Source of the DNA: Acidimicrobiia bacterium
GTDB taxonomy: Bacteria; Actinomycetota; Acidimicrobiia; Acidimicrobiales; Aldehydirespiratoraceae
Direction: 5' to 3'
Assembly (NCBI GenBank): GCA_022821685.1
Contig: JAJEDD010000041.1
Location: forward strand, 41,486-105,485
Length of the DNA stretch: 64,000 nucleotides
Under the pieces are notes generated by a model. It saw nothing but the letters and a program-made list of their open reading frames with translations. It was not told the DNA's origin and ran no database searches. The translations under genes were made by a program, and so were the position numbers. Positions 2,069 through 44,948 of this stretch are shown piece after piece. Within the stretch, counting starts at the first letter, position 1, and the number at the start of each line of letters is the position of its first letter.

Positions 2069-4222
<2,154 letters not shown>

Positions 4223-17007: not shown

Positions 17008-20000
17008 ATGAACGCCGTCACTTCCCGCCAACAGATACGGGATCTGATTTCGGCCCGGGAGTTGGGCGAGCTGTTCCGGGGGCACCTGGGATGGGACAAT
17101 CCCCGCCAAGAACCGCTGCCTTTCGGCTCAGACTCGTCGATGGCGGCTCATCCGGTGGCTTCAAAGAAGGCGGTGGATGTATGGCGTGTGCCGTGTCCGA
17201 CTGTTCCGGCCGCTGTGGAGCGACACAAGATCATCCGCCGGATTCGCAGGCTCTACAGCTTGGAAACGCTGGTCGTCTTTGATGGCGATGATGGCGACAT
17301 GCTGTGGCTTTGGCCGGAGCAACGCCCAGCGGGGGACAGCTACCGGGCGGTTGGCCATCGATGCGATCGAGACGCTGTCGGAGAAGAGATGCTTGATCGG
17401 TTGGCGGGTGTGGCCTTCACGCTCGACGAGGAGGACGACCTCGCGGTGTCCGATGTGTTGTCGCGGGTGCGGCAATCGCTCGGGGTGGACATCGCGGATC
17501 TGGACAGAGAAGTCGAGAGGGCAGTTCTAGATATCGCGGTGCCCCTGTCAGGCGATGCGGGCTGCTCGGCGAAGATCGGCGAGGTCTTGTCCCAGGAGGG
17601 TGGCGAACAGTCCAACCGGATGGCCGCGGCGATCATGTTCAACGCTGTCGTGTTCCAACATCACATCGCTTCTCATCATCCGGGCATTGTGCGCTCCCTT
17701 GAAGAGGTCCGCTCCGCCGGTGCTACCAGGGCTCTTGTCGCCGCTGAGTGGGACGCTATCCTCGCCATCAACTACTGGCCGATCTTCGGGATCGCCCGGA
17801 AGTTGCTCAACGCGATCGGCGACGATGATGTCGCCGCTGCGGTGTTGGGAGACTTGTACGGGAGTGCTTCTGACAAGGTCGCCCATCGGGCTACGCAGGG
17901 TCTGGTGGGGGAGCTCTTCGGGCGGCTCATAGTCGACCGGAAGTTCCTGGCCACCTACTACACGCGTCCGCAGTCGGCTTCGTTCCTGGCTGAGATGGCC
18001 GTGAACCGCCTTGATGTGGACTGGGCCGATCCCGAAGCGGTGACATCGCTGCGCGTGGCGGATTTGGCTTGCGGCACGGGAGCGCTGCTAACAGCCTCGT
18101 ACCGCCGCATTGCAGCCCGCCACGAAGACGCAGGCGGCGATCCCGCCGAGCTGCACCAGAAGATGATGGAGGAAGTCCTCACCGGATGCGACATCATGCC
18201 CGCGGCCGTGCATCTGACCGCTTCGGTGCTGTCGGGCGAGCACACCCATATCGGGTACAAGGGCACCAAGACCTGGGTCATGCCTTTCGGCGTGCATAAT
18301 TTCGGCGCCGGTCCGCAGACCTGTCTTGGTTCGCTGGACTTGCTGTATAGCGGTCAACGGCGGGCACTGTTCGGTGACGGCTCGACCGCGGTCGAGGCGA
18401 AGGACACGGCGGTCCCCAGCGAAGCCAAGGTCCCCGACGGGAAGTTCGACTTGGTGATCATGAACCCGCCCTTCACGCGGCCCACCAACCATGAGAACAA
18501 GCAGCGCGGCCTGGAGGAAGGGGTGGTTGTGCCGAACCCGGCGTTCGCCGGCCTGGACAACGACGAAGTCGCCCAGGAGCTGATGAGCTACGCCCTAGAA
18601 GAGGCCTACGACGCGGGAGGGATCAAGCCCGCAGACCGGGCTGGCCACGGCAACGCCGGACTCCCCACGAACTTCGTGGACCTCGCCCACCGTAAGCTCC
18701 GAGCCGGTGGTGTGCTGGCCCTGATCGTCCCCGCTGCAGCCGTCACCGGAAGAAGCTGGGAGAAGACCAGACAGCTGCTCGTCAAGCACTACGAGGACAT
18801 CGCGGTCGTCACCATGGCGTCAGCGGAGAGCAGCACTGCCCGCGCTTTCTCCAACGACACCAACATGGCAGAAGCGATCATCGTCGCCACGAGACGGAAG
18901 CAGTCCGCAACGCTCACCGAAACCAAGGAATGTCTTGCCCGGTACATTTGCCTGCGGAGCCGGCCGGCGACCAACCCTGAGGGTGTCGACATAGCCCGCG
19001 CAGCATCGCCCGGCGGGGACTTCGACAAACCCGGCGGGTCGCACGCCGGCTTCGCTGTTCCGGTTCTGTTCACGGCCGACGGCGGCGGGCATCCCTCCGG
19101 TGTCATGAGCGCCGAGCTGTGCGGCATCGCCGCGAACCTCACTGTTGGGCATCTGCGCCTTCCCGGCCTGGCGGACTTGATCGATGTCCCGACGGTTCCG
19201 CTCCGAGACCTCGGCTCCCGAGGGCCCGTGGATCGCGACATCAACGAAGGCGGCGGCCGAGGCCCCTATGAGGTGACACCCCCTGAGCGGCGGTGGTCCG
19301 AAGACACTCTTTGGAAGGACAAGGAGCAGGTGCGGCAGTCGCACGTGGACTCCGAGCGGCCGGTGCTATGGAGCCACGACGCGGACATGGAGACTCGCAT
19401 GGTCGTCCTACCATGCTCGACCGGTGTAGTCCGCCCCGGCATGGACGACCGGGCACAAGAGCTCTGGGACGGTTACACCAACAAGAAGAAGGAGCAGATC
19501 GCTGGCGCCACCCGCCTACACATCAACCGCGACTTCCGAGTGAATTCCCAGCCGCTCGGTGCGTGCCTGACCCCCGAAGCTGCGCTGGGTGGATCAGCGT
19601 GGCCCTCCTTCGCGCCTACCCCCCCCCCCGGCTGGAATGGGCGACCGCGAGACGTGGGAGAAAGCGCTGTGCGTGTGGCTGAACTCCACACTCGGCTTGG
19701 TGGGACGGTGGTGGGTGTCATCGCGGCAGCAAAACGGCAGAGCAAGATTGAGCGTCACCACCATCGGGAGCGTTCCGGCTCTGGACTTGCGCAGCGCCAC
19801 TCCGGCGATGATCCGCGCCGCTGCGGCCATATACGACCAATTCGAACACCGGCAGTTCCTCCCCGCCAACGAGGCCTACCGAGACCCGGCGCGCCACGAC
19901 CTGGATGAGACGCTAGCGAAGCGGGTGCTGCACCTGCCAAGAGAGGCGCTTGCCGGACTGGCCCGACTGCGCGACATGTGGTGCCGCGAGCCGTCGGTGC

Positions 20001-20035
20001 ACGGCAACAAGAAGACCCGCCCAGACGGTTCCTGA
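17008..20035 (+). pseudogene. Large (about 1008 aa if restored) N6-adenine DNA methyltransferase, split by a +1 frameshift in a C11 tract (phase-variable or sequencing-error candidate)
   Basis: Motif I VADLACGTGALL and motif IV VIMNPPFTR. The frame starting at 17008 reads ..AWPSFAPTPPP, then turns Arg-rich and stops at 19908. The frame of ORF 19589..20035 continues with plausible sequence (AGMGDRETWEKALCVWLNSTLGLVGRWW...). A good RBS (gaggagag) precedes 17008. Confidence 0.8.
19619..19629 (+). repeat. Homopolymeric poly-C tract (11 nt) inside the methyltransferase gene
   Basis: Counted directly: acc + ccccccccc + g. C10 or C13 would fuse the two reading frames. Confidence 0.95.
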
Positions 20036-20054
20036 CCGACTCGTCACCTGTTGC

Positions 20055-23000
20055 ATGCCACGAATCATCGACAACATCGAGATCGGTCTCGCTGAGGACC
20101 TGCGCGCCGAGATAGCACGCGGTGCTGTGCGGCTCGACGCTGCCATCGGGTACTTCAATCTGCGGGGCTGGCGAGAACTGGCCGACGCCGTGGACGCCAT
20201 GCCTCACACCGAGGACGCTCCCAAGGCGAGAATTCTCATCGGGATGGCCCGCGATCCCCATGACGAACTCCGTAGGGAGCTGACGGGGCGAGGCGACAGC
20301 ACCCTTGACAACGCCACCCGCAACACCATGCGCCAGCAGACCCGCAAGGTGCTGCGCGAGCAGCTGACCATCGGCCTGCCCACCGCAGCCGACGAGAAGG
20401 CCCTGCGACAGCTGCGGGCACAGATGGACTGCGGCGACGTGGCCATCAAGCTGCACTTGGCTCATCGTCTCCATGCAAAGCTCTACATATGCCACCGCGC
20501 CGATGACCGGTACCCGAACCTCGGATATGTCGGGTCGTCCAACTTGACATTCGCCGGCCTCGGCGGGCAGGGCGAGTTGAACGTTGACGTGCCCGACACC
20601 GACGCTTCCGAGAAGCTCGCCGCATGGTTCGAGGCGCGCTGGGAGGACCCTGCTTCGGTTGATGTGACCAGCGATCTGCTGGACCTTCTCGACGAATGCT
20701 GGGCCCGGCCTCACCCGCCTGAGCCATATCTGGTGTATCTGAAGATGGCCTACCACCTGTCCCAGGAGGCCCGGGACGGGTTGATCGCCTATGGTCTGCC
20801 CGCCGACTTGCGGGCCACGCTGCTGGAGCACCAGGCGGTCGCAGCGCAGTTCGCGGCCGGAGCGCTTGACCGGCTCGGCGGGGTGATGGTCGGAGACGTG
20901 GTCGGCTTGGGCAAGACCCTCGTCGCGGTGGCTGTCGCCAGGCTGCGCCAGGACGCGCACGGCGGCCGTGTGCTCGTCGTGTGCCCCAAGAACCTCAGAC
21001 CCATGTGGCAGGGCTACTGCGACACCTACGACCTCCGCCACGAAGTCGTCGAACTGTCGATGGCGACCAAGCGGCTGTCAGAACTGCGAGGCCGTTACAG
21101 CACGGTCGTCGTTGACGAGTCCCACAACCTCCGCAACCGCACCCGCAAGGACTACCAGGAGATCAAGGGCTTCATCGATGACAACGACTCCAAAGTGATG
21201 CTGTTGACGGCCACCCCCTACAACCTCGACTTCACCGACGTCGCGAACCAGTTGGCCCTCTTCGTGGGTGAGGAGGACCCGCTGGGTGTTACCCCCGAGG
21301 CCGCCATTGCCGAGCATGGCGTCGAGCAGGTCACCCGCCGCCTCGACTGCGGCCCTGACAGCCTCGCGGCGTTCCGACGCAGCGAGTACCCCGAGGACTG
21401 GGAACGGCTCATGGACCGCTACATGGTGCGTCGCACCCGCCGCTCGGTGGAGCGCAGCTACGGCGTTGCCGGCATTCAGGTGATCTCCCCTGACGGCGAG
21501 TCGGCAACGTATCCCGCCGACGGCTGCGAGGTGCTTATCGACGGCGCCGCCAAGCGAGGATGGGATCGCGTGCGCATCGAGAGCCAAGGCGCGCGTGTGC
21601 GAGTCGGCGGTGACGAGTCGTTCATTGCTGGAGCGCAAGTGCAAGTCGCCATCAACGGCAGCCTGGCCAGCCTGCCGGCGGGCAGCAGCGCAGCCGTGAG
21701 GCGCTGTCTGCGAGTCGGTGACTCCCTGCATCTCATTCCCCGCCGCCGCGCTGTCAGCGTGACATACCAGCCCGGCCCCGACGCAGCCATCGCGTCCGAT
21801 GAGACCCTCGACGACATCAACGCGTTGGATCTGCCCCGCTATCGCCTGATCGACTACCTGGCGAAAGATGCCGACAAGCGAGACGACCTGACCGGCGATG
21901 AATCCGCGGCGATCAAGTCCTGGCGGGAACAGCCCCAGCGCAACTTGAACCTGATCGGATTCGCCCGGACACTGATCTACAAGCGGCTCGGATCGTCGGG
22001 GCCCGCGCTCATCGCCACACTGCGCCGCCACCGCCTCCGCAACGACATCCTCCTGCTCGCCATAGACCGGGGATGGGACCTGCCAACGATGAGCAGCTCC
22101 ATCGCCGTCGAGCCGTCACCCACCGACATCGACGACGGAGCAGGCGACGAAGAACTCCCGGTCGATGCCGACAGCAGGATCGCCGATGCCGAAGCCGCGT
22201 ACGCCAAGCTCGTCGATTCCGGCAAAGTCAAACACCTGCGGCCGTTGCTGTTCACCGATGCGCTGGGAGATGCGCTGCGCTCGGACAATCGGCTCATCGG
22301 CGGGATCCTCGACCGCATCGGCGACTGGGACCAAGGACACGACACCAAGCTCGACGCCCTCGCGGGGCTTGCCTGCGGCGACCACCGCTCCGAGAAGGTG
22401 GTCGTGTTCACCGAGTACGCCGACACCGCCTCCTACGTCGCGGCTGCCTTGACCGAGCGCGGCATCGACAGCGTCGAGGCGGTCACCGGCTCCGATGCCA
22501 ACCCCACACTGGCCGCCCGCCGATTCTCGCCGCTTTCCAACGAATCGCTGGGCGGGATGCCCCGACGCGAACAGCCGATACGGGTGCTGGTATCCACCGA
22601 CGTCCTATCAGAAGGCCAGAACCTCCAAGACGCCCGCGTCGTGGTGAACTACGACCTGCCGTGGGCGGTAGTGCGGATAGTGCAGCGCGCCGGGCGCGTG
22701 GACCGCATCGGCCAAACCGCCGACGAGGTGGTCGTCGCCTCCATGCTCCCACCCGGCGGCGTCGAAGAAGTGATCGGCAACCACCGGCGCATCCGCGAGC
22801 GGCTAGAAGCCAACGCCGTCGTGTTCGGCGGAGGGGAACGATTCTTCGGCACCGACGAAGAAGAAGCCGCCCTGCGAGACGCGATCTACAACGAGGACCC
22901 GCCCGACGACTCAGACGACGAAGTCGACGTGGTGTCTATGGCCTACGAGATATGGCGAGCCGCACAACGAGACCACCCCGAGAAGGCCGAGGCGGCCGAG

Positions 23001-23582
23001 GCTCTGCCCAACGTGATCTACTCCACTCTCGCCCGAGCCGGCGATGCCGACGAGCTGGGCGTGCTCGTGCACATCCAGACCGACGACGAGATCAACGCGT
23101 TCGCCCTCTCACCCGCGTCAGGCAGCCCGCCGAACGCCGTCGCCGCCCGTGAGGCGCTGCGCCTAGCCGCCTGCGAACCCGACACACCAGCCGCCGACAC
23201 ACTCCAACAGCACCACGAACTGTTGGCCGCAGCATTCAACGGGCCCCTGCGCTTCCCCGCAGCAGCCGCCCAAGGCCAACTATCAGGGGTCCGCAGCCGA
23301 TGCTGGAACAGGCTGCGCGGCTTCCTCAACAGCGCCACCCACCAAACCCAGGGCAATCTGCTGTGGGACCCAACAACCCTCAATGCCGCACTGGACGCTC
23401 TGTATCAACGCCCCCTGCTGCGCGACGCCCGCGAGAAGATCGCCACAGCCCTACAAGAGCACAGCGACGACAACCTCGCGGCCCTCGTAGCGGACCTCCA
23501 CTCCCGCAACGAACTATGCGTTCCACAAGCAGCCGACGTCGCCCCGCCCCACATCATCTGCTCCATGGGCCTGACCCGCTGA
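20055..23582 (+). CDS. PLD(HKD)-nuclease / SNF2-family helicase fusion protein (1175 aa)
   Basis: N-terminal single HKD motif (HAKLYICHR...GYVGSSNLTFAGL). SNF2 motifs I GLGKT, II VVVDESHNLRN, III LLTATPYN and VI QRAGRVDRIGQ, plus the helicase-C segment STDVLSEGQNLQD. The ATG at 20055 is 19 nt after the methyltransferase stop. Confidence 0.85.
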   Translation: MPRIIDNIEIGLAEDLRAEIARGAVRLDAAIGYFNLRGWRELADAVDAMPHTEDAPKARILIGMARDPHDELRRELTGRGDSTLDNATRNTMRQQTRKVLREQLTIGLPTAADEKALRQLRAQMDCGDVAIKLHLAHRLHAKLYICHRADDRYPNLGYVGSSNLTFAGLGGQGELNVDVPDTDASEKLAAWFEARWEDPASVDVTSDLLDLLDECWARPHPPEPYLVYLKMAYHLSQEARDGLIAYGLPADLRATLLEHQAVAAQFAAGALDRLGGVMVGDVVGLGKTLVAVAVARLRQDAHGGRVLVVCPKNLRPMWQGYCDTYDLRHEVVELSMATKRLSELRGRYSTVVVDESHNLRNRTRKDYQEIKGFIDDNDSKVMLLTATPYNLDFTDVANQLALFVGEEDPLGVTPEAAIAEHGVEQVTRRLDCGPDSLAAFRRSEYPEDWERLMDRYMVRRTRRSVERSYGVAGIQVISPDGESATYPADGCEVLIDGAAKRGWDRVRIESQGARVRVGGDESFIAGAQVQVAINGSLASLPAGSSAAVRRCLRVGDSLHLIPRRRAVSVTYQPGPDAAIASDETLDDINALDLPRYRLIDYLAKDADKRDDLTGDESAAIKSWREQPQRNLNLIGFARTLIYKRLGSSGPALIATLRRHRLRNDILLLAIDRGWDLPTMSSSIAVEPSPTDIDDGAGDEELPVDADSRIADAEAAYAKLVDSGKVKHLRPLLFTDALGDALRSDNRLIGGILDRIGDWDQGHDTKLDALAGLACGDHRSEKVVVFTEYADTASYVAAALTERGIDSVEAVTGSDANPTLAARRFSPLSNESLGGMPRREQPIRVLVSTDVLSEGQNLQDARVVVNYDLPWAVVRIVQRAGRVDRIGQTADEVVVASMLPPGGVEEVIGNHRRIRERLEANAVVFGGGERFFGTDEEEAALRDAIYNEDPPDDSDDEVDVVSMAYEIWRAAQRDHPEKAEAAEALPNVIYSTLARAGDADELGVLVHIQTDDEINAFALSPASGSPPNAVAAREALRLAACEPDTPAADTLQQHHELLAAAFNGPLRFPAAAAQGQLSGVRSRCWNRLRGFLNSATHQTQGNLLWDPTTLNAALDALYQRPLLRDAREKIATALQEHSDDNLAALVADLHSRNELCVPQAADVAPPHIICSMGLTR

Positions 23583-23643: not shown

Positions 23644-24762
23644 TCAGGTGAATTCGACGCGCCGCTTTAGGCGGTTGCCCACGTTGTACTGCAGCTTGCC
23701 CTCGTATTGGAGCCTTCCGACCACGATGCCAGCAGCGACCTCGTGTTCGTCGGCGAAGCGCTGAATGTCGGCAAGTGTCCGAAGGCCGAATAGACGCTCC
23801 TCAAGTCGCTCGGGAATCAAGGTGGTTGCAGCAAACCGGTCGGCCTCGGATTCTCTCACAAGGTCTTCGGCCACATACGGCTGTGCGCCACTCTCGTTCT
23901 TGCCAATCGCCGCATCGATGAAGCGCTCGCGGCGAGGGTGGAGCAGGATGTGGCCCACTTCGTGAAACAACGAGAACCAGAACTGGTCGTCGCGGCGGTA
24001 GCGCAAACTCAAGGCGATGACGGGGTTCCCGGCCAGCCAGTAGGCCGCTCCACTGACGCGAGCGCCCTTGATCTCCGGCTCGAACACCACTGCAACTCCG
24101 GCGGCGCCACATACCGACTGGAGCCACTCTCCGACTGTCTCGGGCGGATCCGCGGTCGCAGAGCGGATCTTCAGCAGCAGCTTGCGGAACCTTGACGGAT
24201 CGTAGATGCCACGATCAACTTCCGCCGCCTTGATCTCTGTGATCCTCACCCAGGACGCAAGCGCTCCCTGATCCACTTCGTACGCACTGGCGCGGCGGAA
24301 GGACGCGGCCGGTTGACTCCACACTGAGTGCCATGCGGCCACTGAGGCAACTCCGAAGAAGCGCTTCGCCTCCGCGATTAGGGTCGCCTTATCGTCGCTT
24401 TGAGGTAGGTAGCCCCGCTTGCGCAACTCGCGCCAGGGCAGCAGCTTCAGCCACTCCAAGTCCTCCGCGGTCGCCTGACGCTCAGCGAGCCGGGTCAGTC
24501 GTGCCTGATAGTTGGCCTCCCGGGCGTTCCAGAACTGCGACGGGATCCCGAGCACCCGTTCCAGCTTCACCGCGACGGCCGGAGTCAGGGTCGCGTGGCC
24601 CTTTGCGAGCCGGTTGACATGCTTGGGGCTCAATTCGGCGCGGCGGGCTAGCTCGGCCTGAGTCAGGCCAGCCTCTTCCAGCGCCTCCAGCAACGTCTCG
24701 CCTGGAGGCACGGCATAATCGGGTTCATAAGTGATCAGTTCGTTGGCCATGCTCTTACTCAC
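23644..24762 (-). CDS. higA: HigA-like XRE HTH antitoxin fused to an ImmA/IrrE (COG2856) zinc metallopeptidase domain
   Basis: N-terminal HigA-type HTH (PPGETLLEALEEAGLTQAELARRAELSPKHVNRLAKGHATLTPAVAVKLERVLGIPSQFW). C-terminal HExxH motif (FHEVGHILLH). Confidence 0.8.
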   Translation of the reverse strand: MSKSMANELITYEPDYAVPPGETLLEALEEAGLTQAELARRAELSPKHVNRLAKGHATLTPAVAVKLERVLGIPSQFWNAREANYQARLTRLAERQATAEDLEWLKLLPWRELRKRGYLPQSDDKATLIAEAKRFFGVASVAAWHSVWSQPAASFRRASAYEVDQGALASWVRITEIKAAEVDRGIYDPSRFRKLLLKIRSATADPPETVGEWLQSVCGAAGVAVVFEPEIKGARVSGAAYWLAGNPVIALSLRYRRDDQFWFSLFHEVGHILLHPRRERFIDAAIGKNESGAQPYVAEDLVRESEADRFAATTLIPERLEERLFGLRTLADIQRFADEHEVAAGIVVGRLQYEGKLQYNVGNRLKRRVEFT

Positions 24763-24824: not shown

Positions 24825-25160
24825 CTAGTCATGGGTGTCGGCAATCTCGACGACTACCACCCCTGTCACAAGTTTCCAGTCGATACTGCCTTCGGAGCGC
24901 CGAACCCGGTCAGGATCAGCTGGCTCGACAATGAGACGCCTGGGGTGATCCAAATCGCCGCTCATCTGGCCTCTCCGGTCGGCACGAAGCGGGTGCCACC
25001 TTCCAGGAAGGCTCAAGAGTTCGCTCGCGTCGGCGACCGCCTCCAAGTCGGCCAAACGCTGCTTCAGCCGTCGGGCTCCTTTCGATCCGAGCCTTCGCGT
25101 CATCAACCGCTCCTGCGCGCAGAGCGCTGCGAGCCGTCGATCTCGAAACTGGATCAGCAC
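24825..25160 (-). CDS. higB: HigB-like toxin (plasmid-maintenance killer protein, RelE/ParE superfamily)
   Basis: 111 aa with the HigB pattern (IQFRDRRLAALC...AKRLKQRLADLEAV....L.LPG.R.HPL..DR.GQ.S..L....RLI). GTG start. Toxin-first order, as in higBA. Confidence 0.75.
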   Translation of the reverse strand: MLIQFRDRRLAALCAQERLMTRRLGSKGARRLKQRLADLEAVADASELLSLPGRWHPLRADRRGQMSGDLDHPRRLIVEPADPDRVRRSEGSIDWKLVTGVVVVEIADTHD

Positions 25161-27829: not shown

Positions 27830-29857
27830 ATGATCCACGCCCGAAGCGGTGCGAGGACCGGGTTGTTGAGCTTGATCGACGAACTCGTCCTGGCCCTCCT
27901 CAACGAGGAGAGCGGCTACTTTCGCCAAGTACCCGGCTGGAATCTGAACTGCGCCGTCGTCGGCGCGGCACTGGCCGAGCTGTCGCTCATGTCGCGCATC
28001 GACACCGACATGGACTCCCTGATCCTTCTGGATGCGACCGCGACCGGCGACCGGGCGCTCGATCCCGCCCTCGAAGAGATCGCGGCCGAGCCCGTTCAGC
28101 ACAACGCCCAGTACTGGATCGAGCGGCTCGCTCCCCAGGCGGAATCGATCATCGACATGACGCTCGACCGGCTGGTCGACCTGAGGATCCTCCACCATCA
28201 CGACGGCGACTTCTGGTCGCTGGCCGGAGCCGCCTGGAGGATGGAACTCCACCAGGGATCCGAGGAGGGCACGGCCGTCGAGCACGTCAAGACCCGCATC
28301 AGCAGAGCCATCTTCAACAACGAGATCCCCGATCCGAGAGACATAATCATCATCTGTTTGATCGACACCTGCGACGTGCTGCGCCTCATCTTCGAACTCG
28401 ACGAGGAGGCCGAAGAACGCGTCCGGGCCATCCTCAAGATGGACTTGATCGGTCGAGCCATCGCCGCGGCGGTGGCACAGAACATTGCGGGGCGGTTGTT
28501 CGGGCCGACCGCTCTGGCCAAGCCGATTCCCGTCGTCCCGCTGCGGAGGCTGCTGCGCAGCAAACAGATCCGGTCCGGCAACCTGCCCGCATTCTTCGCC
28601 GAACTGCACCAAGAGTTCGGCCCGGTGTTCGAGATACGGCCGCCGGTGGCTCAGAACATGATCTGCCTCGCTGGTCCGGACACGAACCAGTGGGTGCACC
28701 GTCAAGGCCGCATGCACCTGAGAGCCAGGGACTATCTGGAGGACTTCGAGAAGGTCTACGGCGGGGTGGGGCTGCTGCCCGCCCTCGACGGCGCCGACCA
28801 CTTCCGGTATCGAAAGTTCATTCAGCCCGCGTATTCGCGCACCAGGGTGGAGGACCGGCTGGACGAGTTCCTCAGCCGCGCCCGCCACGACATGGCGGCC
28901 TGGAGTGTCGGGGAGACGCGCCATGCGGTGGGGATGTGCCGCAAGCTGGTCAACGCCGCCATGTCGCCGCTGTTTGTCGGCATCGACTCCCAAGACATCG
29001 TCGACGACATGCACAAGTTCAAGGACCGGGCCCTCAAGACGCACGTCGGCCGAACCCTGCCCAAGTTCATGCTGAAGACCCCGGCCATGAGGCGCCGAGC
29101 GAAACAGATCGACGAGGTGATGGACCGGGTGCTCAACGTCCATACCCCCGCCCAGCGGGTCGGCTGTCCCCGGGATCTGGCCGACGAGCTGCTGACCATG
29201 CACAACAACGATCAGCAGTTCCTGCCGGAGTCGAATCTTCGGTTCGTGCTGTCGGCGCCGCTGATCGCCAGCATGTACGTGGGCGACCAGCTCAGCTTCG
29301 CCGCATTCGCCATGGTGTCGCAGCCCGAGTTCTACGACAGGATCCGGGCCGAGGCCGACTCGGTGTTCGCGGCCGGCGACCCGGACGGCGAGACGCTCAC
29401 CGGGCCGTCCACAGACGTGACTCGCCGGTTCATCATGGAGTGTCTGCGCCTCTACCCGATCGTCCCGCTGTCGGTCCGCAACGTGATGAACGCCTGCGAG
29501 GTGGAGGGCTACCAGCTGCCCGAGGGCAGGCGCGTCTTCATTGCACAGACGGCAACGCACTACATGGCCGACCTCTTTCCCGACCCGTTCAGATTCGACA
29601 TCGACCGCTATGCGGAGCCCCGCAAAGAGCATGTCGGCACCGGATACTCGCCCTACGGATTGGGCACCCACACCTGCCTCGGCGCCCGATTGACGGAAAT
29701 GTACCTGGCCACCAACCTGCTGTTGATGGCGCACTACTTCATGTTCGAGATCGCCCCCAAGAACTACAAGCTGAGGATCAGCCCGTTCCCGTCGATGTCG
29801 CCGAACAAGAAGCTGAAGTTCCGCATCTCCGAGCGCAGGCGCGACCTACCCGCCTGA
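27830..29857 (+). CDS. GPP34/GOLPH3-like domain fused to a cytochrome P450
   Basis: The N-terminal about 200 aa look GPP34-like (LIDELVLALLNEESGYF...NCAVVGAALAELSLMSRID...LDPALEEI). The C-terminal part is a P450 (ExxR in ECLRLYP; heme loop YSPYGLGTHTCLGARL). Confidence 0.75.
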   Translation: MIHARSGARTGLLSLIDELVLALLNEESGYFRQVPGWNLNCAVVGAALAELSLMSRIDTDMDSLILLDATATGDRALDPALEEIAAEPVQHNAQYWIERLAPQAESIIDMTLDRLVDLRILHHHDGDFWSLAGAAWRMELHQGSEEGTAVEHVKTRISRAIFNNEIPDPRDIIIICLIDTCDVLRLIFELDEEAEERVRAILKMDLIGRAIAAAVAQNIAGRLFGPTALAKPIPVVPLRRLLRSKQIRSGNLPAFFAELHQEFGPVFEIRPPVAQNMICLAGPDTNQWVHRQGRMHLRARDYLEDFEKVYGGVGLLPALDGADHFRYRKFIQPAYSRTRVEDRLDEFLSRARHDMAAWSVGETRHAVGMCRKLVNAAMSPLFVGIDSQDIVDDMHKFKDRALKTHVGRTLPKFMLKTPAMRRRAKQIDEVMDRVLNVHTPAQRVGCPRDLADELLTMHNNDQQFLPESNLRFVLSAPLIASMYVGDQLSFAAFAMVSQPEFYDRIRAEADSVFAAGDPDGETLTGPSTDVTRRFIMECLRLYPIVPLSVRNVMNACEVEGYQLPEGRRVFIAQTATHYMADLFPDPFRFDIDRYAEPRKEHVGTGYSPYGLGTHTCLGARLTEMYLATNLLLMAHYFMFEIAPKNYKLRISPFPSMSPNKKLKFRISERRRDLPA

Positions 29858-35110: not shown

Positions 35111-35995
<885 letters not shown>

Positions 35996-36071
35996 GGCTA
36001 TATCCCGCGCTCGCCGGTGCCGTTGCCAGCCAGATCCACCGCCCGGCGGACGAAGTCGAGCGGCACAGATC

Positions 36072-37235
36072 TCACGACCGCCCCGCCCCATCGCCGGCGC
36101 CGGCCAGATCCACCGCCCGGCGGGCGGCGTCGAGCATGGTGGGCTCCATCATCAACGCATCGCTCAGGTGGGGCTCAAGCAGCTCGCGGCCCTCGGCTGC
36201 GTTGGTGCCGTCGAGGCGGATCACGATGGGCGAGTCGATGTCGACGCGCCCGGTGGCCTCGACGATGCCGACCGCGATCTCCTCGCCCCGGGTGATGCCC
36301 CCGAAGATGTTGATCAGGATGGCCCGCACCGCGGGATCGTTGTTGATCACCTCCAGCGCGCCGGCCATGACCTCGGCGTTGGCGCCGCCGCCGATGTCGA
36401 GGAAGTTGGCGGGACGGCCCCCCACCTGGTTGACCACGTCGACGGTGCTCATGGCCAGGCCCGCGCCGTTGGCGATCACCCCCACCGAGCCGTCGAGTCC
36501 CACGTATTGCAGCCCTTTGGCGTGGGCGGCCTGCTCACGCTCGTCGCGGGTCTGGGTGGCGTCGTAGGCGGCGTAATCGTGGTGGCGGAACGTGCTGTTG
36601 GCGTCGAGGGTGACCTTGGAGTCGAGCAGCACCACCTCGCCGCCGGAAGTCACGATAAGCGGGTTGACCTCCACCAGGTCTGCGTCGGCGTCCACGTAGA
36701 CGCGGTACAGCGCCGCCAGCACGTCGGCCACCGAGTCGGCGGCGGCACCGGGGATGCGGGCGGCCCGCACCCAATGGCGGCACTGCTCGGCCGACAGCCC
36801 GTCTACCGGGTCGATGTGGATGCGGGCAATGGCCTCGGGGGCGCGGGCGGCCACCGCCTCGATCTCCACGCCGCCCTCGGCCGACAGCATCCCCAGGTGC
36901 TGGCGGGCCGACCGGTCGAGGGTGAAGCTGGCGTAGTACTCCTCGGCGATGTCGGACGCCTGCTCGATCCACAGGCGGCGCACGGTGTGGCCCGAGATGT
37001 CGAGCCCCAGGATGCCTTCGGCGTGTCGGCGCACCTCGTCGATGTCGGCGGCGAGCTTCACTCCCCCGGCCTTGCCCCGTCCGCCGGTGTGGACCTGGGC
37101 CTTCACCACCACCGGCAGCCCGAGCCGCTGGGCCGCGGCCACGGCCTCGTCAGCCGAGAAGGCGGCTTCGCCCACCGGCACCGGCAGCCCGTACCGGGCG
37201 AACAGCTCCTTGCCCTGATGCTCGAACAGATCCAC
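36072..37235 (-). CDS. sucC: Succinate--CoA ligase subunit beta
   Basis: VDLFEHQGKELFARYGLPVP, VVKAQVHTGGRGKAGGVK, NIFGGITR. GTG start at 37235. The 169-aa upstream extension in the track was rejected. Confidence 0.9.
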   Translation of the reverse strand: MDLFEHQGKELFARYGLPVPVGEAAFSADEAVAAAQRLGLPVVVKAQVHTGGRGKAGGVKLAADIDEVRRHAEGILGLDISGHTVRRLWIEQASDIAEEYYASFTLDRSARQHLGMLSAEGGVEIEAVAARAPEAIARIHIDPVDGLSAEQCRHWVRAARIPGAAADSVADVLAALYRVYVDADADLVEVNPLIVTSGGEVVLLDSKVTLDANSTFRHHDYAAYDATQTRDEREQAAHAKGLQYVGLDGSVGVIANGAGLAMSTVDVVNQVGGRPANFLDIGGGANAEVMAGALEVINNDPAVRAILINIFGGITRGEEIAVGIVEATGRVDIDSPIVIRLDGTNAAEGRELLEPHLSDALMMEPTMLDAARRAVDLAGAGDGAGRS

Positions 37236-37328
37236 GAGCGGCGATACTAGGCCGCGATGCCCGCCACCGGTTCGCCCGCGCTGCGATCTCAGCCCTGCCC
37301 GAGTCGGACAGAGTGAGTCGATAGCGCG

Positions 37329-37796
37329 ATGCCCGTCTCCCGTGGCTCCCGACCCGACCTGCGCACCGTGGTGGTGGTGGGCCTGGCCGGGGTGGCGGTG
37401 GCGCTGGGACTGGTGCTGGGGGTGCTGCTGCTCACCCGGGGCGGCACCGATGTGGAACTCCGCCTCGGCGACCGCGACTTCCGCGACATGGAAACGGGCC
37501 GGATAAGCGCCGAGATCGCCGACCGGGGGCCGATCCTGTTCGGCGACGTAGCCGACGGCGAGCTCGACATCATCCTTCAGCACCTCGGCGACGACCCCGA
37601 ATCGGGGTGGCTGGCCTTCGAGGCCCGCCGATCCGGCCAGAGTCGGGACTGCTTCTTCCAGTGGCTCCCCGAGCGGGCCGAGTTCGTCAACACCTGCGAC
37701 CCCGAAGACATCGTGGACGCGGCCGGCACCGGCCTGCGCCACTTCGACGTGGCCGTAGTAGACGGCGACGTCCGGGTAGACATCAACCCGTCGTAA
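37329..37796 (+). CDS. Hypothetical membrane-anchored protein
   Basis: 155-aa ORF with one N-terminal transmembrane helix (TVVVVGLAGVAVALGLVLGVLLL) and a non-repetitive acidic ectodomain. No family recognised. Confidence 0.5.
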   Translation: MPVSRGSRPDLRTVVVVGLAGVAVALGLVLGVLLLTRGGTDVELRLGDRDFRDMETGRISAEIADRGPILFGDVADGELDIILQHLGDDPESGWLAFEARRSGQSRDCFFQWLPERAEFVNTCDPEDIVDAAGTGLRHFDVAVVDGDVRVDINPS

Positions 37797-37820
37797 CGCT
37801 CACACGGAAGAGCGCTCACA

Positions 37821-38558
37821 ATGGAGGACCGTATGGCTGACGTGAAACCCACCGACCGGATTTTCCTGCGCGACGCCCAGTGCCGGGCCTTCACCGCAAC
37901 CGTCGTCGCGGTCGACGGCGACCGGGTGGCCCTCGACGCCACCGCCTTCTACGCCACCAGCGGAGGCCAGCCCCACGACACCGGCACGCTCAGCTTCGCC
38001 AGCGGCGAGGCGGCGGTCACCGATGTGCGGGGCCACGACGTGGTGTGGCACACCCTCGACGGCGAGGCCCCGCCAGCCGGCACGCCGGTGCGGGGGGAGC
38101 TCGACTGGGAGCGCCGCCTCGCCCTGATGCGCACCCACACCGCGCTGCACATCCTGTGCGGGGTGATCTACAACACCTGGGGCGTGTCGGTGACCGGCGG
38201 CAACATGGCCCCGCTGTCGGCCCGCATGGACTTCGAGTTCGACCCCCTGCCGGAGGGCTTCGCCAAGCAGGTCACCGAGCTGGTCAACGCCGAGATCGCC
38301 GCCGACCGCCCCATCGAGATCTCGTTTCTGCCCCGGGCCGAGGCCCTGGCCGACGAGGATCTGATTCGCACCAAGGTCAACCTCATCCCCGAGTCGGTGC
38401 AAGAGATCCGGGTGGTGGACATCGTCGGGCTCGACAAGCAGGCCGACGGGGGCACCCACCTGCGGTCCACCGGCGGGGTGGGCCGCTTCGAGGTGGTCAA
38501 GACCGAGTCGAAGGGCAAGGCCAACAAGCGCCTGCGGATCGCCCTCCACGACGCCTGA
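37821..38558 (+). CDS. alaX: Alanyl-tRNA editing protein (AlaX-M-like)
   Basis: HxxxH zinc motif (RTHTALHILCG) and the CxxxH-region equivalent (ADGGTHL). Confidence 0.75.
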   Translation: MEDRMADVKPTDRIFLRDAQCRAFTATVVAVDGDRVALDATAFYATSGGQPHDTGTLSFASGEAAVTDVRGHDVVWHTLDGEAPPAGTPVRGELDWERRLALMRTHTALHILCGVIYNTWGVSVTGGNMAPLSARMDFEFDPLPEGFAKQVTELVNAEIAADRPIEISFLPRAEALADEDLIRTKVNLIPESVQEIRVVDIVGLDKQADGGTHLRSTGGVGRFEVVKTESKGKANKRLRIALHDA

Positions 38559-38588
38559 TCCGGCCAGTCGGCCTCTTGGCCTCTGGCC

Positions 38589-40805
38589 TCAGATCTTCTC
38601 CAGGGGGGCCCACGAGAGCAGCAGCTGCTTCTGGCCGACGCCGGGGAAGCGCACCGAGGCCTGAGCGTCGTCGCCGCTGCCCTCGATGTTGAGGATCACG
38701 CCCTCGCCCCACTGGGTGTGGCGCACATCGTCGCCCACTCGCAGTCCCAGGCGATCAGCGCCGGACGGCGCGGGAGCGGGGCGCCGGCCGGCGTCGATGG
38801 CCCGCTCCACGATCTCGTCGCGGTGGGACGACCGCCGGTCGAGACTGTGCTCGCGCCGGGCGCGGCTCCAGTGGCGGCTGCGCACCGCCCGGGCGCCGTC
38901 GGCGGCCTGCACCAGCTCGGCGGGGATCTCCTTGATGAACCGGCTCGGCGGGTTGTACTGCCGGCTGCCGTACAGCAGGCGGCTCCAGGCGTGGGTGAGG
39001 GTGAGCTGGCGCATGGCCCGGGTGATCCCGACGTAGGCCAGGCGGCGCTCCTCCTCCAGTTCGTGGGGCTCGCCCAGGGCCCGAATGTGGGGGAACACCC
39101 CGTCCTCCATGCCGATCATGTACACGTCGGGATACTCCAGGCCCTTGGCCGAGTGCAGGGTCATGAGCGTGACCGCGGAGTCGTCGGCGTCGGCCAGATC
39201 GTCGGTGTCGGCCACCAGCGCCACCGCCTCCAGGAACTCGTCGACGGTGTCGTGCTCGCCGGCCGCTCCCACCAGCTCGGCCAGGTTCTCGAGCCGGCCG
39301 TCGGCCTCGACCGACTTCTCCGCGCGCAGCTCGTCCAGATAGCCGGAGCGCTCCAAGAGCTCCTGCAGCACAGCGGCCGGCGTAGCCCGCAGCGAGGCCA
39401 CGTCGTCGATGAGGGCACGGAACTGTCCGACCCCGGCCGCGGCCCGCCCGGTGACGCCGGCGGAGGCGCAGCGGCCGAGGGCCTCGTAGAAGGTGAGGCC
39501 GTGCCGCGCCGCGCTGGCGTCGATCTTGGCCACCGAGGTGGCGCCCACCCCCCGCTTGGGCACGCCCAGCGCTCGCTTCACGCTCACCTCGTCGCCGGGA
39601 TTGGCGACCGCCTTGACGTAGGCCATGGCGTCGCGCACCTCGCGGCGGTCGTAGAAGCGGGTGCCGCCCACCAGCCGGTAGGGGATCTCCGCCTTCACCA
39701 GCTGCTCCTCTACCGCCCGGGACTGGGCGTTGGTGCGGTAGAAGACAGCCATCTCGGACAGGCGCATGTGCTCGGACTCGCGGCGGCGCACGATCTCGCT
39801 GACCACGTAGCGGGCCTCGTCGGACTCGTCGTCGGCGTGGTAGCGGACGATGCCGGGTCCCGATCCCCGGTCGGTCCACAGGTCCTTGGGCTTGCGGCCG
39901 GCGTTGTTGACGATGACGGCGTTGGCGGCGTCGAGGATGTTCTGGGTGCTGCGATAGTTCTGCTCCAGCACCACGATGCGGACGTCGTCGAAGGCCCGCT
40001 CGAACTCGAGGATGTTGCGGATGTCGGCGCCGCGGAAGGCGTAGATCGACTGGTCGGCGTCGCCCACCGCGGTCACCTGGCGGCTCTCGGCGCCCAGGCG
40101 GATCACCAGTTCGTTCTGCACCGGGTTGGTGTCCTGATACTCGTCCACCAGCACATGAGCGAAGCGCTGCCGCCAACGGTCCAGCACCTCCGGGCAGCTC
40201 CGGAACAGCTCTACGGTGCGCAGCAGCAGATCATCGAAGTCCATGGCCGCGGCCGAGGCCAGCCGGCGCTGGTAGCGGTCGAACACCTCAGCGATGCGCC
40301 GCTCGTAGACGTTGGAGGCCCGCTCGGCGTAGTCGGCCGCGCCGATGTTGTCGTTCTTGGCGGCCGAGATGACGGCGTGGATCGAGCGGGGCGGGAACCG
40401 CTTGGGGTCGAGGTTCAGGTCACGCAGCACGTAGCCGCACAGTCGCACCGCATCGCCCTGGTCATAGATGGAGAAGCGGCTGGGGTAATCGATGTAGGCG
40501 GCGTCGCGGCGCAGGATGCGCACACAGGCGGCATGGAACGTCGACACCCACATGCTCTCGGCCACCGGGCCCACCAGGCCGCCGACGCGGTGGCGCATCT
40601 CACCGGCGGCCTTGTTGGTGAAGGTGATGGCCAGGATCTCGAACGGCGACACGCCGTGCTCCCCAATCAGGTGCGCGATGCGGTGGGTGAGCACCCGGGT
40701 CTTGCCCGATCCCGCCCCGGCCACCACCAGAAGCGGCCCGCCGACATGGGTGACCGCCTCAAACTGGGCCGGGTTCAGCCCCTCCAGAATCGCCGACTCC
40801 GCCAT
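38589..40805 (-). CDS. pcrA: ATP-dependent DNA helicase PcrA/UvrD (SF1)
   Basis: Walker A AGAGSGKT, DEYQDTN, TLHSAKGLEYP, VGITRA. Confidence 0.9.
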   Translation of the reverse strand: MAESAILEGLNPAQFEAVTHVGGPLLVVAGAGSGKTRVLTHRIAHLIGEHGVSPFEILAITFTNKAAGEMRHRVGGLVGPVAESMWVSTFHAACVRILRRDAAYIDYPSRFSIYDQGDAVRLCGYVLRDLNLDPKRFPPRSIHAVISAAKNDNIGAADYAERASNVYERRIAEVFDRYQRRLASAAAMDFDDLLLRTVELFRSCPEVLDRWRQRFAHVLVDEYQDTNPVQNELVIRLGAESRQVTAVGDADQSIYAFRGADIRNILEFERAFDDVRIVVLEQNYRSTQNILDAANAVIVNNAGRKPKDLWTDRGSGPGIVRYHADDESDEARYVVSEIVRRRESEHMRLSEMAVFYRTNAQSRAVEEQLVKAEIPYRLVGGTRFYDRREVRDAMAYVKAVANPGDEVSVKRALGVPKRGVGATSVAKIDASAARHGLTFYEALGRCASAGVTGRAAAGVGQFRALIDDVASLRATPAAVLQELLERSGYLDELRAEKSVEADGRLENLAELVGAAGEHDTVDEFLEAVALVADTDDLADADDSAVTLMTLHSAKGLEYPDVYMIGMEDGVFPHIRALGEPHELEEERRLAYVGITRAMRQLTLTHAWSRLLYGSRQYNPPSRFIKEIPAELVQAADGARAVRSRHWSRARREHSLDRRSSHRDEIVERAIDAGRRPAPAPSGADRLGLRVGDDVRHTQWGEGVILNIEGSGDDAQASVRFPGVGQKQLLLSWAPLEKI

Positions 40806-40870
40806 CGCCGCTCACCCTACTGCCGCCACCCGACACCACCGGAGAGCCCTGCCGCCGACTCCTATGCGCC

Positions 40871-43291: not shown

Positions 43292-43296
43292 CCGTG

Positions 43297-44841: not shown

Positions 44842-44948
44842 CGCGGGCCGCTCATCTCACCGCTCCGGCGCCTCACCGCTGACTCGCAGCAGGCCGCCGG
44901 TTCGCCGTCCGACGAGCCGCCCGCCGCGGCAGGGCTGCCCGCCGGACT

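Follow-up and report, generated by a model that had tools for sequence, protein, structure and literature searches.

Restriction-modification systems that couple an N6-adenine methyltransferase to an ATP-driven nuclease have been described in several arrangements. Type ISP enzymes such as LlaGI and LlaBIII carry the nuclease, motor, methyltransferase and target recognition domain (TRD) on one polypeptide, whereas Type III systems such as EcoP15I divide them between a methyltransferase that carries specificity (Mod) and a helicase-nuclease that depends on it (Res). In phase-variable Type III systems a repeat-driven ON/OFF switch sits in the mod gene, which is tolerated because restriction needs Mod. 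Single-chain Type IIG/IIL enzymes (MmeI, BpuSI, DrdV, Cj0031) join nuclease, methyltransferase and TRD without a separate motor gene, and phospholipase D (PLD)-type nucleases linked to SF2 ATPases are found in SauUSI, CglI/NgoAVII, PbeA and the MtsD effector of MANTIS/Gao_RL (bioRxiv 10.64898/2026.09.23.753747; PMC10853773 for PbeA and SauUSI).

Here we examine a two-gene locus in a 64,000-nucleotide stretch of Acidimicrobiia DNA (hereafter the window), which pairs a large methyltransferase with a PLD-SNF2 fusion. This pairing has already been listed, as a Cj0031-like Type II RM CDS next to a PLD (cd09178) + SNF CDS, in a table of PMC9881135, and the partner methyltransferase of Synechocystis, slr6050 (M.Ssp6803IV), has been studied genetically (PMC6105098); however, we found no biochemical or phage-challenge test of such a pair. 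A preliminary description based on sequence alone had stated that PLD-SNF2 fusions were catalogued only as conserved-domain models with no known functional study—given the work on MtsD, PbeA and SauUSI, this statement is outdated or incomplete.

Anatomy of the locus

The observation that prompted this work was confirmed: two co-directional genes, a methyltransferase and a PLD-SNF2 fusion, lie 19 nt apart in a segment of lower GC content (0.62-0.67 across about 16.9-25.3 kb, against 0.70-0.72 in the flanks). Gene 1 (17008-20035, plus strand) encodes a gamma-class N6-adenine methyltransferase with a target-recognition region. As sequenced, its ORF (17008-19908) runs out of frame at a C11 tract (19619-19629), located inside codons for TPPP; this is the only homopolymer of 8 or more in the window. 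Deleting one C gives a 1008-aa protein ending at 20035, consistent with full-length natural homologues of 1002-1012 aa at 78-94% identity; C13 is likewise in frame, while at C11 the frame shifts after aa ~874. The catalytic core spans 18061-18474, from motif I (DLACGTG, 18061-18090; DLACGTGALL at aa 352-361) to motif IV (NPPF, aa 486-489, 18463-18474), and these columns are invariant in a 36-sequence alignment; a weak Pfam Eco57I hit covers aa 459-601. The same alignment shows many invariant columns between aa 883 and 996, within the conserved C-terminal ~125 aa (WEKALCVWLNSTLGL..., 19655-20035) that is lost when the tract is out of frame.

The preliminary description recognised no domain in about 330 N-terminal and about 450 C-terminal residues of gene 1, but these termini can now be assigned: there is an N-terminal ~160-aa partner-specific domain (17008-17502), here termed the adaptor, followed by a helical spacer and, at the C-terminus, a target-recognition region resembling Type IIG/ISP/PglX enzymes. 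The AF2 models of the two proteins are of moderate quality only (pLDDT 73 and 69; pTM 0.72 and 0.42). The fold matches of the gene 1 model are BpuSI, DrdV, LlaBIII and BrxX/PglX, while the gene 2 model resembles RapA and SNF2 remodellers.

Gene 2 (20055-23582, plus strand) starts at the ATG at 20055 and is intact, encoding a 1175-aa fusion of one HKD/PLD nuclease motif (aa ~10-215), a RapA-like SNF2 ATPase (lobe 1 at aa ~250-465, a beta insert at 470-570, a helical region, and lobe 2 at aa ~765-900) and a conserved C-terminal domain (aa ~960-1175). Every expected motif is present: HAKLYICH (140-147), GSSNLT (160-165), GLGKT (284-288), DESH (354-357), TATPYN (385-390) and QRAGRVDRIGQ (877-887). 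The HKD, Walker A, DExH and motif VI columns are invariant in a 20-sequence alignment at ~48% identity. The beta-rich insert, previously put at about 230 aa, is about 100 aa in the AF2 model, of which only about 70 aa are extra relative to the ~1100-aa family consensus.

The neighbouring genes had been described as a toxin-antitoxin module. The first, in the same low-GC island, encodes an HTH_3 + Peptidase_M78 (ImmA/IrrE) fusion (23644-24762, minus strand) and is not conserved next to the module elsewhere, the flanks of which differ among relatives. Upstream of it lies a 111-aa ORF (24825-25160, minus strand) that may be a HigB-like toxin, although the resemblance is by eye only and a Pfam search returned no hit.

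Conservation of the pair, its N-terminal domains and its repeats

Both families number thousands of proteins, and their pairing recurs across phyla. PLD-SNF2 relatives were confirmed at 585 scanned stretches, and the 80 loci kept span more than 10 phyla. Of the 52 loci with enough flank, 49 carry a large methyltransferase ORF with the adaptor domain, adjacent and on the same strand, and 22 more with partial flank do too; synteny, which had been named beforehand as a test that could refute the idea of a module, is thus passed. The pair also occurs on the Synechocystis plasmid pSYSX. The adaptor is the hallmark shared by all methyltransferases that sit next to a PLD-SNF2 gene, and it is the only part of gene 1 that tblastn detects across phyla. 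It is an undescribed domain with no Pfam hit and no PDB sequence relative, and the 193 representative proteins that carry it always do so at the N-terminus; however, no fusion of the adaptor or the methyltransferase with PLD-SNF2 was found that would prove physical coupling. The adaptor sits on at least three different Type IIG/IIL chassis—partners include a Cryobacterium protein with full MmeI_hel/Mtase/TRD/C Pfam domains, the Slr6050 type (PADLOC REase_MTase_IIG), a type with a C-terminal AlbA_2 domain, and gene 1's own type.

A reciprocal test gave the complementary result. In all, 72 metagenome loci encode relatives of gene 1 with a different N-terminal domain, and none has PLD-SNF2 within 6 kb, whereas the two adaptor-type relatives with room both have it. 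The alternative domain carries PD[ILVM]-x6-18-hExE/K in 44 of the 47 distinct sequences examined, indicating a nuclease domain in these solitary relatives. An hhalign comparison finds no homology between the two N-terminal domains (probability 0.3%); however, the adaptor could itself be a degenerate nuclease fold, as Hagemann et al. noted weak HSDR_N similarity in Slr6050.

The C tract is a hypervariable simple-sequence repeat. Its length is 9, 9, 9, 11, 12, 12, 13 and 15 in eight assemblies, only one of which is in frame; one of the C12 values comes from the ENA copy of the same scaffold, otherwise identical over 11.5 kb. These lengths come from assemblies rather than reads, so homopolymer miscalls may contribute to individual values, and C9 in three assemblies could be a calling bias. 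Additionally, related Acidimicrobiia partner genes carry G/C runs, (TG)n, (TC)n and tetranucleotide repeats. Across the 80 loci, 11 of 14 long repeats lie in partner methyltransferase genes, which cover 12.5% of the bases (p = 3e-8); these include (TG)15, (TC)9, (CGAC)27 and (TCGG)13. PLD-SNF2 has no internal stop in any of the 13 OFF loci. The preliminary description treated the frameshift as something to repair; it is more likely a phase-variation switch.

Interpretation and alternative readings

We favour, with moderate confidence, the reading that the two genes encode a two-subunit, ATP-dependent restriction-modification system with Type III or "split Type ISP" logic. In this view gene 1 descends from single-chain Type IIG/IIL enzymes (nuclease-methyltransferase-TRD) in which the PD-(D/E)xK nuclease domain has been replaced by the adaptor; the protein would keep target recognition and N6-adenine methylation of host DNA, and probably hemimethylates a short asymmetric site. 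Gene 2 would supply in trans what gene 1 lost: a single HKD motif means that it must dimerise to form one PLD active site, as in BfiI, SauUSI and MtsD, this nuclease would be driven by an SNF2 dsDNA translocase, and gene 2 would be recruited or licensed at unmethylated sites through the adaptor. The poly-C tract, at codon ~871, would act as a slippage-prone contingency switch: at C11 the last ~135 conserved residues are lost and the system would be OFF. Since PLD-SNF2 stays intact where the methyltransferase is OFF, restriction must in this model need the full-length methyltransferase, and one switch would turn off both methylation and restriction without self-killing. The anatomy, the synteny, the domain replacement and the repeat-length polymorphism are demonstrated by our analysis, whereas methylation and cleavage by these proteins, their physical coupling, the type of site and the reversibility of the switch are inferred.

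Two lines of published evidence bear on this model. The Synechocystis methyltransferase slr6050 is tentatively assigned the asymmetric site GAm6AGGC, and a knock-out could not be segregated, as expected if a cognate restriction activity exists (PMC6105098). The same result could, however, mean that restriction persists without an intact methyltransferase, which would contradict a single switch for both activities, although polyploidy and the retained N-terminal fragment make it ambiguous. A precedent is available in MANTIS, where a PLD-helicase dimer restricts only when the methyltransferase complex recognises unmodified asymmetric sites (bioRxiv 10.64898/2026.09.23.753747).

The earlier interpretation, a minimal DISARM-like defence system, was partly supported: the pair is a self-contained, conserved methyltransferase and nuclease-translocase module that none of the HMM libraries searched assigns to a characterised system, but the DISARM-like label is not supported. 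Every NCBIfam hit is far below its cut-off (for example DISARM_DrmD at 121 bits against 610, and phospholipD_antiphage at 131 against 1100), and PADLOC hits are partial.

Among the alternatives, all of which we consider unlikely, a sequencing or assembly artefact in a gene that is really intact (C10 or C13) survives best. Long G/C homopolymers are error-prone on all platforms, and the two deposited versions of the window's scaffold differ only in this tract (C11 against C12). However, lengths range over 6 nt across assemblies from different projects, di- and tetranucleotide repeats that break or preserve frame in sister genes cannot be homopolymer errors, and seven of eight assemblies being wrong is unlikely; even if the true length here is uncertain, the tract is still a hypermutable repeat.

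Slightly more doubtful is a decaying pseudogene, in which the frameshift is permanent, the cassette is being lost and the tract has no switching role. The window copy and most close relatives are out of frame, one locus elsewhere is truly decayed (half a PLD-SNF2 and no methyltransferase), and another has a frameshift without any repeat. Against this, the breaks sit exactly at repeats of varying length (9-15), both flanks of the tract remain conserved with the downstream frame open to the normal stop, PLD-SNF2 is intact in all 13 OFF loci, and independent lineages have acquired different repeats (mono-, di- and tetranucleotide) in the same gene.

Less likely still, the methyltransferase may be mainly a phase-variable epigenetic regulator (a phasevarion), with PLD-SNF2 not a restriction nuclease but an accessory remodeller or loader needed for methylation, by analogy with the ATPase MtsA in MANTIS. 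Phase-variable methyltransferases often control regulons, as is established for Type III mod genes, and in MANTIS methylation itself needs an ATPase (bioRxiv 10.64898/2026.09.23.753747). However, the HKD catalytic residues of gene 2 are invariant across phyla, and the adaptor replaces a nuclease domain precisely when PLD-SNF2 is present, which argues that the nuclease function was outsourced; additionally, the module sits in variable defence-island contexts with SIR2, AbiEi, PIN and KAP NTPase genes. The least likely reading is a reduced member of a known multi-gene system (class 1 DISARM, BREX-related/Hma/MANTIS or Dpd) whose other genes lie elsewhere: the best PADLOC and NCBIfam hits of gene 2 are DrmD, "HKD+Snf2", BrxHI, HmaA and DpdE, but all cover only the helicase lobes and fall far below curated cut-offs, no DrmA/DrmB, DUF499, DUF3780, PglZ or BrxC gene lies within about 6 kb, and the two-gene unit moves alone into many unrelated contexts.

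Comparison with described systems

Type ISP enzymes have the same four activities—nuclease, SF2 ATP motor, gamma-class N6-adenine methyltransferase and TRD—and LlaBIII (4xqk) is among the best fold matches of gene 1; an asymmetric site with one-strand methylation is expected here too, as inferred from the GAAGGC site of M.Ssp6803IV (PMC6105098). In Type ISP, however, the single polypeptide uses an Mrr-type PD-(D/E)xK nuclease and a Type I-like helicase, while here the predicted activities are split over two proteins, the nuclease is HKD/PLD, the motor is RapA-like SNF2, and a dedicated adaptor domain is present. Type III systems share the two-subunit plan and the position of the switch; however, Mod is a beta-class enzyme and Res carries a C-terminal PD-(D/E)xK nuclease, and no sequence or HMM relationship to either was found.

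Gene 1 shares the helical spacer, methyltransferase and TRD chassis of Type IIG/IIL enzymes, and its closest solitary relatives are such enzymes; Cj0031 is described as the homologue of PLD-SNF-linked enzymes in PMC9881135. In contrast to these, the nuclease domain is replaced by the adaptor, a separate PLD-SNF2 gene is always present, and gene 1 scores only 19-25 bits on the PADLOC Type IIG models.

In the MANTIS/Gao_RL/Type-2 BREX-related (Hma-like) system the effector is likewise an N-terminal HKD nuclease fused to an SF2 (Swi2/Snf2-type) ATPase, and it acts only after a methyltransferase recognises unmodified asymmetric sites (bioRxiv 10.64898/2026.09.23.753747; PMC12839542). MANTIS needs a DUF499 AAA+ ATPase and a DUF3780 protein and uses a different methyltransferase family, none of which is present here; gene 2 matches the HmaA model only over aa 631-888 (helical region and lobe 2), and the phospholipD_antiphage model best over aa 760-925 (lobe 2). 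Class 1 DISARM (DrmD, DrmMI, DrmA, DrmB, DrmC) has the same domain inventory of SNF2 helicase, N6-adenine methyltransferase and PLD nuclease, but here the core genes DrmA and DrmB (DUF1998) are absent, PLD is fused rather than separate, and gene 1 is not DrmMI (E about 0.004).

The PLD-nuclease ATP-dependent restriction enzymes share a single HKD motif coupled to an SF2 ATPase; the Pfam RE_NgoFVII N-terminal PLD model hits gene 2, and PbeA models hit the Synechocystis homologue. They differ in that SauUSI is modification-dependent and carries its own reader domain, CglI/NgoAVII separate nuclease and ATPase and use C5 methyltransferases, and PbeA works with Dnd-type partners.

The two-gene locus and library searches

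The window has about 70% GC, and the stretch from about 16.9 to 25.3 kb drops to 0.62-0.67. The first open reading frame of the pair (gene 1, the methyltransferase gene; 17008-19908) leaves its frame at a C11 tract (19619-19629), the only homopolymer of 8 or more in the whole 64 kb. Removing one C (C10) gives a 1008-aa protein that ends at 20035. The next gene (gene 2, the PLD-SNF2 gene) starts 19 nt later at 20055 and encodes 1175 aa. The motifs named in the preliminary description are all present at the places it gave, and its observation of the two genes is therefore confirmed. The window matches, base for base, the 11.5-kb stretch fetched from an ENA metagenome scaffold (KELL22-1_SAMN22237337_METAG-scaffold_50), with the single exception that the ENA copy has C12—two public versions of the same scaffold differ only in the poly-C length (19619-19629 in the window, 3564-3575 in the ENA copy, our locus L081).

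In Pfam searches gene 1 has only a weak Eco57I methylase hit, while gene 2 has PLDc_2/RE_NgoFVII, SNF2-rel_dom, and Helicase_C. The PADLOC and NCBIfam libraries give partial hits: for gene 2 to DrmD, 'HKD+Snf2', BrxHI, HmaA, DpdE, and phospholipD_antiphage, and for gene 1 to mad2 and to Type IIG/PglX fragments; however, every NCBIfam hit is far below its curated cut-off, and none of the three libraries assigns either protein to a known system. Profile searches of the PDB gave only generic relatives, BrxX at E = 0.005 for gene 1 and RapA/SNF2 for gene 2.

The neighbours within about 6 kb are a GATase, an abhydrolase, an ACAD, an HTH-ImmA fusion, a luciferase-like gene, and an S-methyltransferase. 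The HTH_3 + Peptidase_M78 (ImmA/IrrE) fusion (23644-24762, minus strand) was considered as a candidate third component and rejected, because the neighbours differ in every relative. A 111-aa ORF (24825-25160, minus strand) sits directly upstream of this fusion and looks HigB/killer-protein-like by eye; the two may form an atypical toxin-antitoxin pair, although the resemblance of the small ORF could not be confirmed and it has no Pfam support. A second lower-GC stretch at 27.5-30.5 kb contains a 675-aa ORF (27830-29857, plus strand) that combines a GPP34 (Golgi phosphoprotein 3) domain with a cytochrome P450 domain.

Conservation of the pair and its shared N-terminal domain

Both proteins belong to large families. 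In each search more than 6000 of the 8000 scored candidates passed the E-value threshold, and the named hits among the best matches are Acidimicrobiia MAGs. A scan of one genome per species confirmed relatives of PLD-SNF2 at 585 scanned stretches; the 80 loci kept (loci of this and of the other scans are numbered with the prefix L) span Acidimicrobiia, Verrucomicrobiota, Cyanobacteria, Chloroflexota, Acidobacteriota, Bacteroidota, Firmicutes, Proteobacteria, Actinomycetes, and others. Nearly every locus with enough flank has a co-directional ORF of 900-1370 aa carrying NPP[YWF] directly beside the PLD-SNF2 gene—downstream in most phyla, and upstream in most of the Acidimicrobiia loci. An HMM of the partner's N-terminal domain finds it adjacent on the same strand in 49 of 52 well-flanked loci, and in 22 more with partial flank. 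The exceptions are one truncated PLD-SNF2 copy (L001), one truncated methyltransferase copy (L071), and one locus with only 2.4 kb of downstream flank (L005). L001 (10001-11902), in a Candidatus Aldehydirespirator genome, is a decayed copy in which only the C-terminal half of PLD-SNF2 (aa 542-1175, 83% identity) remains and no methyltransferase lies within 10 kb.

The flanks of the pair differ in every relative and include SIR2, AbiEi, PIN, KAP NTPase, an integrase fragment, or metabolic genes; the two genes therefore move as a unit. In three Acidimicrobiia loci (L070 5013-6023, L072 8904-10010, and L073 8733-10010) an extra ORF of 336-425 aa with no Pfam hit lies between the methyltransferase and PLD-SNF2, and could be a third component of a sub-variant. 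The pair also occurs on plasmids, including Synechocystis PCC 6803 pSYSX and Rhodococcus, Gordonia, and Arthrobacter-group plasmids. On pSYSX (35696-55139, our locus L092) a vapBC-type pair is inserted between PLD-SNF2 and the methyltransferase gene slr6050, and a ThiF/E2/multiubiquitin cluster and an HTH + ImmA/IrrE pair lie just downstream. The PLD-SNF2 gene of pSYSX lies at 43696-47151.

A tblastn search with gene 1 detects only its first ~160-220 residues in the partners from other phyla. The rest of those partners belongs to different chassis: a complete MmeI-type enzyme (MmeI_hel, MmeI_Mtase, MmeI_TRD, MmeI_C) in Cryobacterium; the Slr6050 type, which PADLOC models as 'Type IIG restriction enzyme-methyltransferase'; a type with a C-terminal AlbA_2 domain; and gene 1's own type. 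What they share is the N-terminal domain of ~160 aa, here called the adaptor, with the consensus LF.EELGW ... IA.KRG ... PD...R.KI ... EHL.IF.D ... Q.W.WVKRE ... GQ.G..LLQKL. The tryptophans W29, W100, and W102 of the adaptor are conserved. This domain has no Pfam model and, in a profile search, no PDB sequence relative, and it always lies at the extreme N-terminus of the 193 representative proteins that carry it. A search of these 193 representatives for a fusion of the adaptor or methyltransferase with PLD-SNF2 found none. One giant hit (P0241, 5081 aa) matches residues 85-151 of the adaptor in 29 separate stretches; it is probably a repeat protein or a compositional match.

The reciprocal test gave the same answer. 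A metagenome scan with the gene 1 family returned mostly solitary proteins of 950-1040 aa that align from residue ~165 onward. Their N-terminal ~165-200 residues carry PD[ILVM]-x6-18-hExE/K, a PD-(D/E)xK-type nuclease signature, in 44 of 47 cases; the signature occurs in 0 of 42 adaptor-type N-termini, and no acidic or lysine column is invariant in aa 1-190. All 72 nuclease-type loci lack PLD-SNF2 within 6 kb, while the adaptor-type loci with room (L093 and L150) both have it. We considered that the adaptor is a diverged copy of the nuclease domain of the solitary relatives; however, hhalign rejects detectable homology between the two N-domains (probability 0.3%), although a degenerate nuclease fold cannot be excluded by this sequence comparison. 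So on at least three chassis the built-in nuclease has been exchanged for this domain exactly where a PLD-SNF2 gene is present. The simplest reading is that the nuclease function has been outsourced to PLD-SNF2 and that the new domain couples the two proteins, the coupling itself being inferred.

The AF2 model of gene 1 (pLDDT 73, pTM 0.72) matches BpuSI, DrdV, LlaBIII, HsdM, and BrxX/PglX. The predicted layout is an alpha/beta N-domain (aa 1-135), a helical spacer (aa ~147-332), a Rossmann-fold methyltransferase (aa ~340-650), and a less confident C-terminal TRD; the residues after the tract (aa 883-1008) are among the most conserved of the family. The model of gene 2 (pLDDT 69, pTM 0.42) matches RapA and the eukaryotic SNF2 remodellers, with a predicted N-terminal PLD fold, two RecA lobes, an all-beta insert at aa 470-570, a helical region, and a conserved C-terminal domain. 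The HKD, Walker A, DExH, and motif VI columns are invariant at ~48% identity. A single HKD motif implies dimerisation to build one active site, as established for BfiI and Nuc and reported for MtsD and SauUSI (bioRxiv 10.64898/2026.09.23.753747).

Repeat-length variation in the methyltransferase genes

Close homologues of gene 1 truncated at 887-911 aa all break at SFAPTPP. DNA from independent assemblies shows the tract as C9 (three times), C11 (the window), C12 (the ENA copy of the same scaffold, and L093), C13 (in frame, giving 1009 aa), and C15—only one of the eight is in frame. Relatives at 78-89% identity have no tract at this site and are intact. In the other Acidimicrobiia loci the partner methyltransferase of the Slr6050 type carries different repeats at different positions. 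These are in frame in L002 (G17), L068 (C15), L073 ((CGAC)27), and L077 ((TCGG)13), and out of frame in L066 (G17), L072 (G10), L074 (G11), L069 ((TG)15), and L070 ((TC)9); a Verrucomicrobiota locus (L033) has C15. In L068 a second tract, C14 (16639-16652), lies directly after the stop codon of the partner methyltransferase.

Across the 80 genome loci, 11 of the 14 long repeats lie in the partner methyltransferase genes, which make up 12.5% of the sequence (binomial p = 2.9e-8). No repeat lies in PLD-SNF2, and that gene has no internal stop in any of the 13 loci whose methyltransferase is out of frame. Solitary Type IIG-like relatives of gene 1 also carry long poly-C tracts: L121 (7353-7377) and L161 (7347-7370) have about C24 inside the gene, while L095 (2392-2403), L096 (4539-4555), L127 (4555-4566), and L136/L137 (4619-4628) have C10-C17 tracts 0.9-1.5 kb upstream of the methyltransferase match.

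Di- and tetranucleotide repeats cannot be homopolymer sequencing errors, and independent acquisition of different repeats in the same gene is the signature of contingency loci. We therefore read the frameshift as a repeat-length switch, with reversibility within a clonal population remaining an inference for which C11 against C12 in the two versions of one scaffold is the only hint. The same pairing was reported to vary by programmed inversion in other bacteria, with Cj0031 of Campylobacter named as the homologue (PMC9881135), which fits a general pressure to vary this methyltransferase.

Proposed mechanism and comparison with known systems

The analysis itself establishes the two-gene unit, the domain replacement, the conserved catalytic residues, and a hypervariable repeat in the methyltransferase beside an intact nuclease gene; what follows on recognition, methylation, recruitment, cleavage, and protection of methylated DNA is inferred. 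In this view, gene 1 would recognise a short asymmetric site and methylate one strand. The only experimental hint is Synechocystis slr6050, the partner of the pSYSX PLD-SNF2 gene, which is tentatively assigned GAm6AGGC and whose knock-out would not segregate (PMC6105098). PLD-SNF2 dimers would be recruited through the adaptor at unmodified sites and use ATP to translocate and cleave. Genomes tolerate an OFF methyltransferase beside an intact nuclease gene, so in this model restriction must require the full-length methyltransferase, as in Type I, Type III, and MANTIS, and one switch would then silence both activities. The slr6050 result could instead mean that restriction survives loss of the methyltransferase, transcriptional slippage on long C tracts could make OFF states leaky, and the interaction between the two proteins is inferred without direct evidence.

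A further reading, possible but tentative, is that this is an unnamed, widespread class of ATP-dependent restriction-modification system, in which a previously undescribed adaptor domain has repeatedly displaced the nuclease domain of unrelated Type IIG/IIL enzymes and would harness a dimeric PLD-SNF2 motor nuclease in trans. In Acidimicrobiia the repeats suggest that the systems run as repeat-driven contingency loci; several of the repeat-bearing genomes are, by their names, sponge-associated, and these would be the first phasevarion-like switches reported for this group of uncultured bacteria. The pervasive repeats suggest that uncultured symbionts use contingency switching of defence or epigenetic state, a strategy that has so far been documented mainly in host-adapted pathogens.

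If confirmed, the pair adds a distinct two-subunit architecture to the ATP-dependent restriction enzymes—a natural 'split' counterpart of Type ISP built from a PLD nuclease and an SNF2 motor—and defines a new protein-protein coupling domain, which would show how modular methyltransferase-TRD chassis are re-wired to different effectors. Defence-annotation tools would currently miss it or mislabel it as a Type IIG enzyme plus an unassigned 'helicase-related protein'. The family is present in tractable hosts (Synechocystis PCC 6803 pSYSX, Rhodococcus, and Arthrobacter-group plasmids), so it can be tested directly there or by heterologous expression. Parts of it are already catalogued: CDD has cd09178, PADLOC has 'HKD+Snf2' and a Type IIG model built on the Slr6050 family, and a table in PMC9881135 lists the pairing. 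Literature searches on PLD-SNF2 proteins, on their combination with methyltransferases or Type IIG enzymes, and on phase variation in sponge symbionts found no functional or mechanistic study of the pair, no description of the adaptor domain, and no report of repeat-driven switching in these Acidimicrobiia.

The interpretation in the preliminary description, a compact restriction-like or minimal DISARM-like system, is partly supported: the conserved pairing holds, but the DISARM label does not. The DrmA (helicase) and DrmB (DUF1998) core genes of class 1 DISARM are absent from the locus, and relatives have other, unrelated neighbours; NF038317 DISARM_DrmD scores 120.8 bits against a cut-off of 610, and the PADLOC DrmMI models have E = 0.0035-0.008. 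For BREX, no PglZ or BrxC is present nearby, and the PglX NCBIfam models score 14-21 bits against cut-offs of 400-900. For MANTIS/Hma/Type-2 BREX-related systems, no DUF499 AAA+ ATPase (MtsA/HmaC) or DUF3780 (MtsB) gene occurs in the window neighbourhood or in the 12 related loci with called genes; the effector feature, an N-terminal HKD nuclease fused to a Swi2/Snf2-type ATPase, is present, as Pfam PLDc_2, SNF2-rel_dom, and Helicase_C hit gene 2, although the family-level HMMs are far below cut-off. The module therefore does not belong to DISARM, BREX, or MANTIS/Hma as those are defined in PMC12839542 and bioRxiv 10.64898/2026.09.23.753747.

Gene 1 shares with Type IIG/IIL single-chain enzymes a gamma-class N6A methyltransferase plus TRD on one chain, preceded by a helical spacer: the motif order is DLACGTG then NPPF, the predicted fold matches BpuSI, DrdV, and BrxX, and sister partners hit the MmeI_hel/Mtase/TRD/C or Eco57I models; however, the N-terminal PD-(D/E)xK nuclease domain of those enzymes was not found on this chain. 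With respect to Type III systems, the gamma-class motif order argues against a beta-class Mod, only a weak partial ResIII hit is present (26 bits), and the nuclease is an N-terminal HKD rather than a C-terminal PD-(D/E)xK domain of a Res subunit. With respect to Type ISP, whose four activities lie on a single polypeptide with an Mrr-like nuclease, there are two ORFs here. Phase-variable (contingency) methyltransferase loci carry a simple sequence repeat inside the coding sequence whose length differs between strains and sets the reading frame, and the tract of gene 1, which runs from C9 to C15 at one site in eight assemblies, has this feature. Functionally, the proposed system would work like a Type III or a split Type ISP enzyme and would parallel the effector logic of MANTIS, while failing defining features of each of these families.
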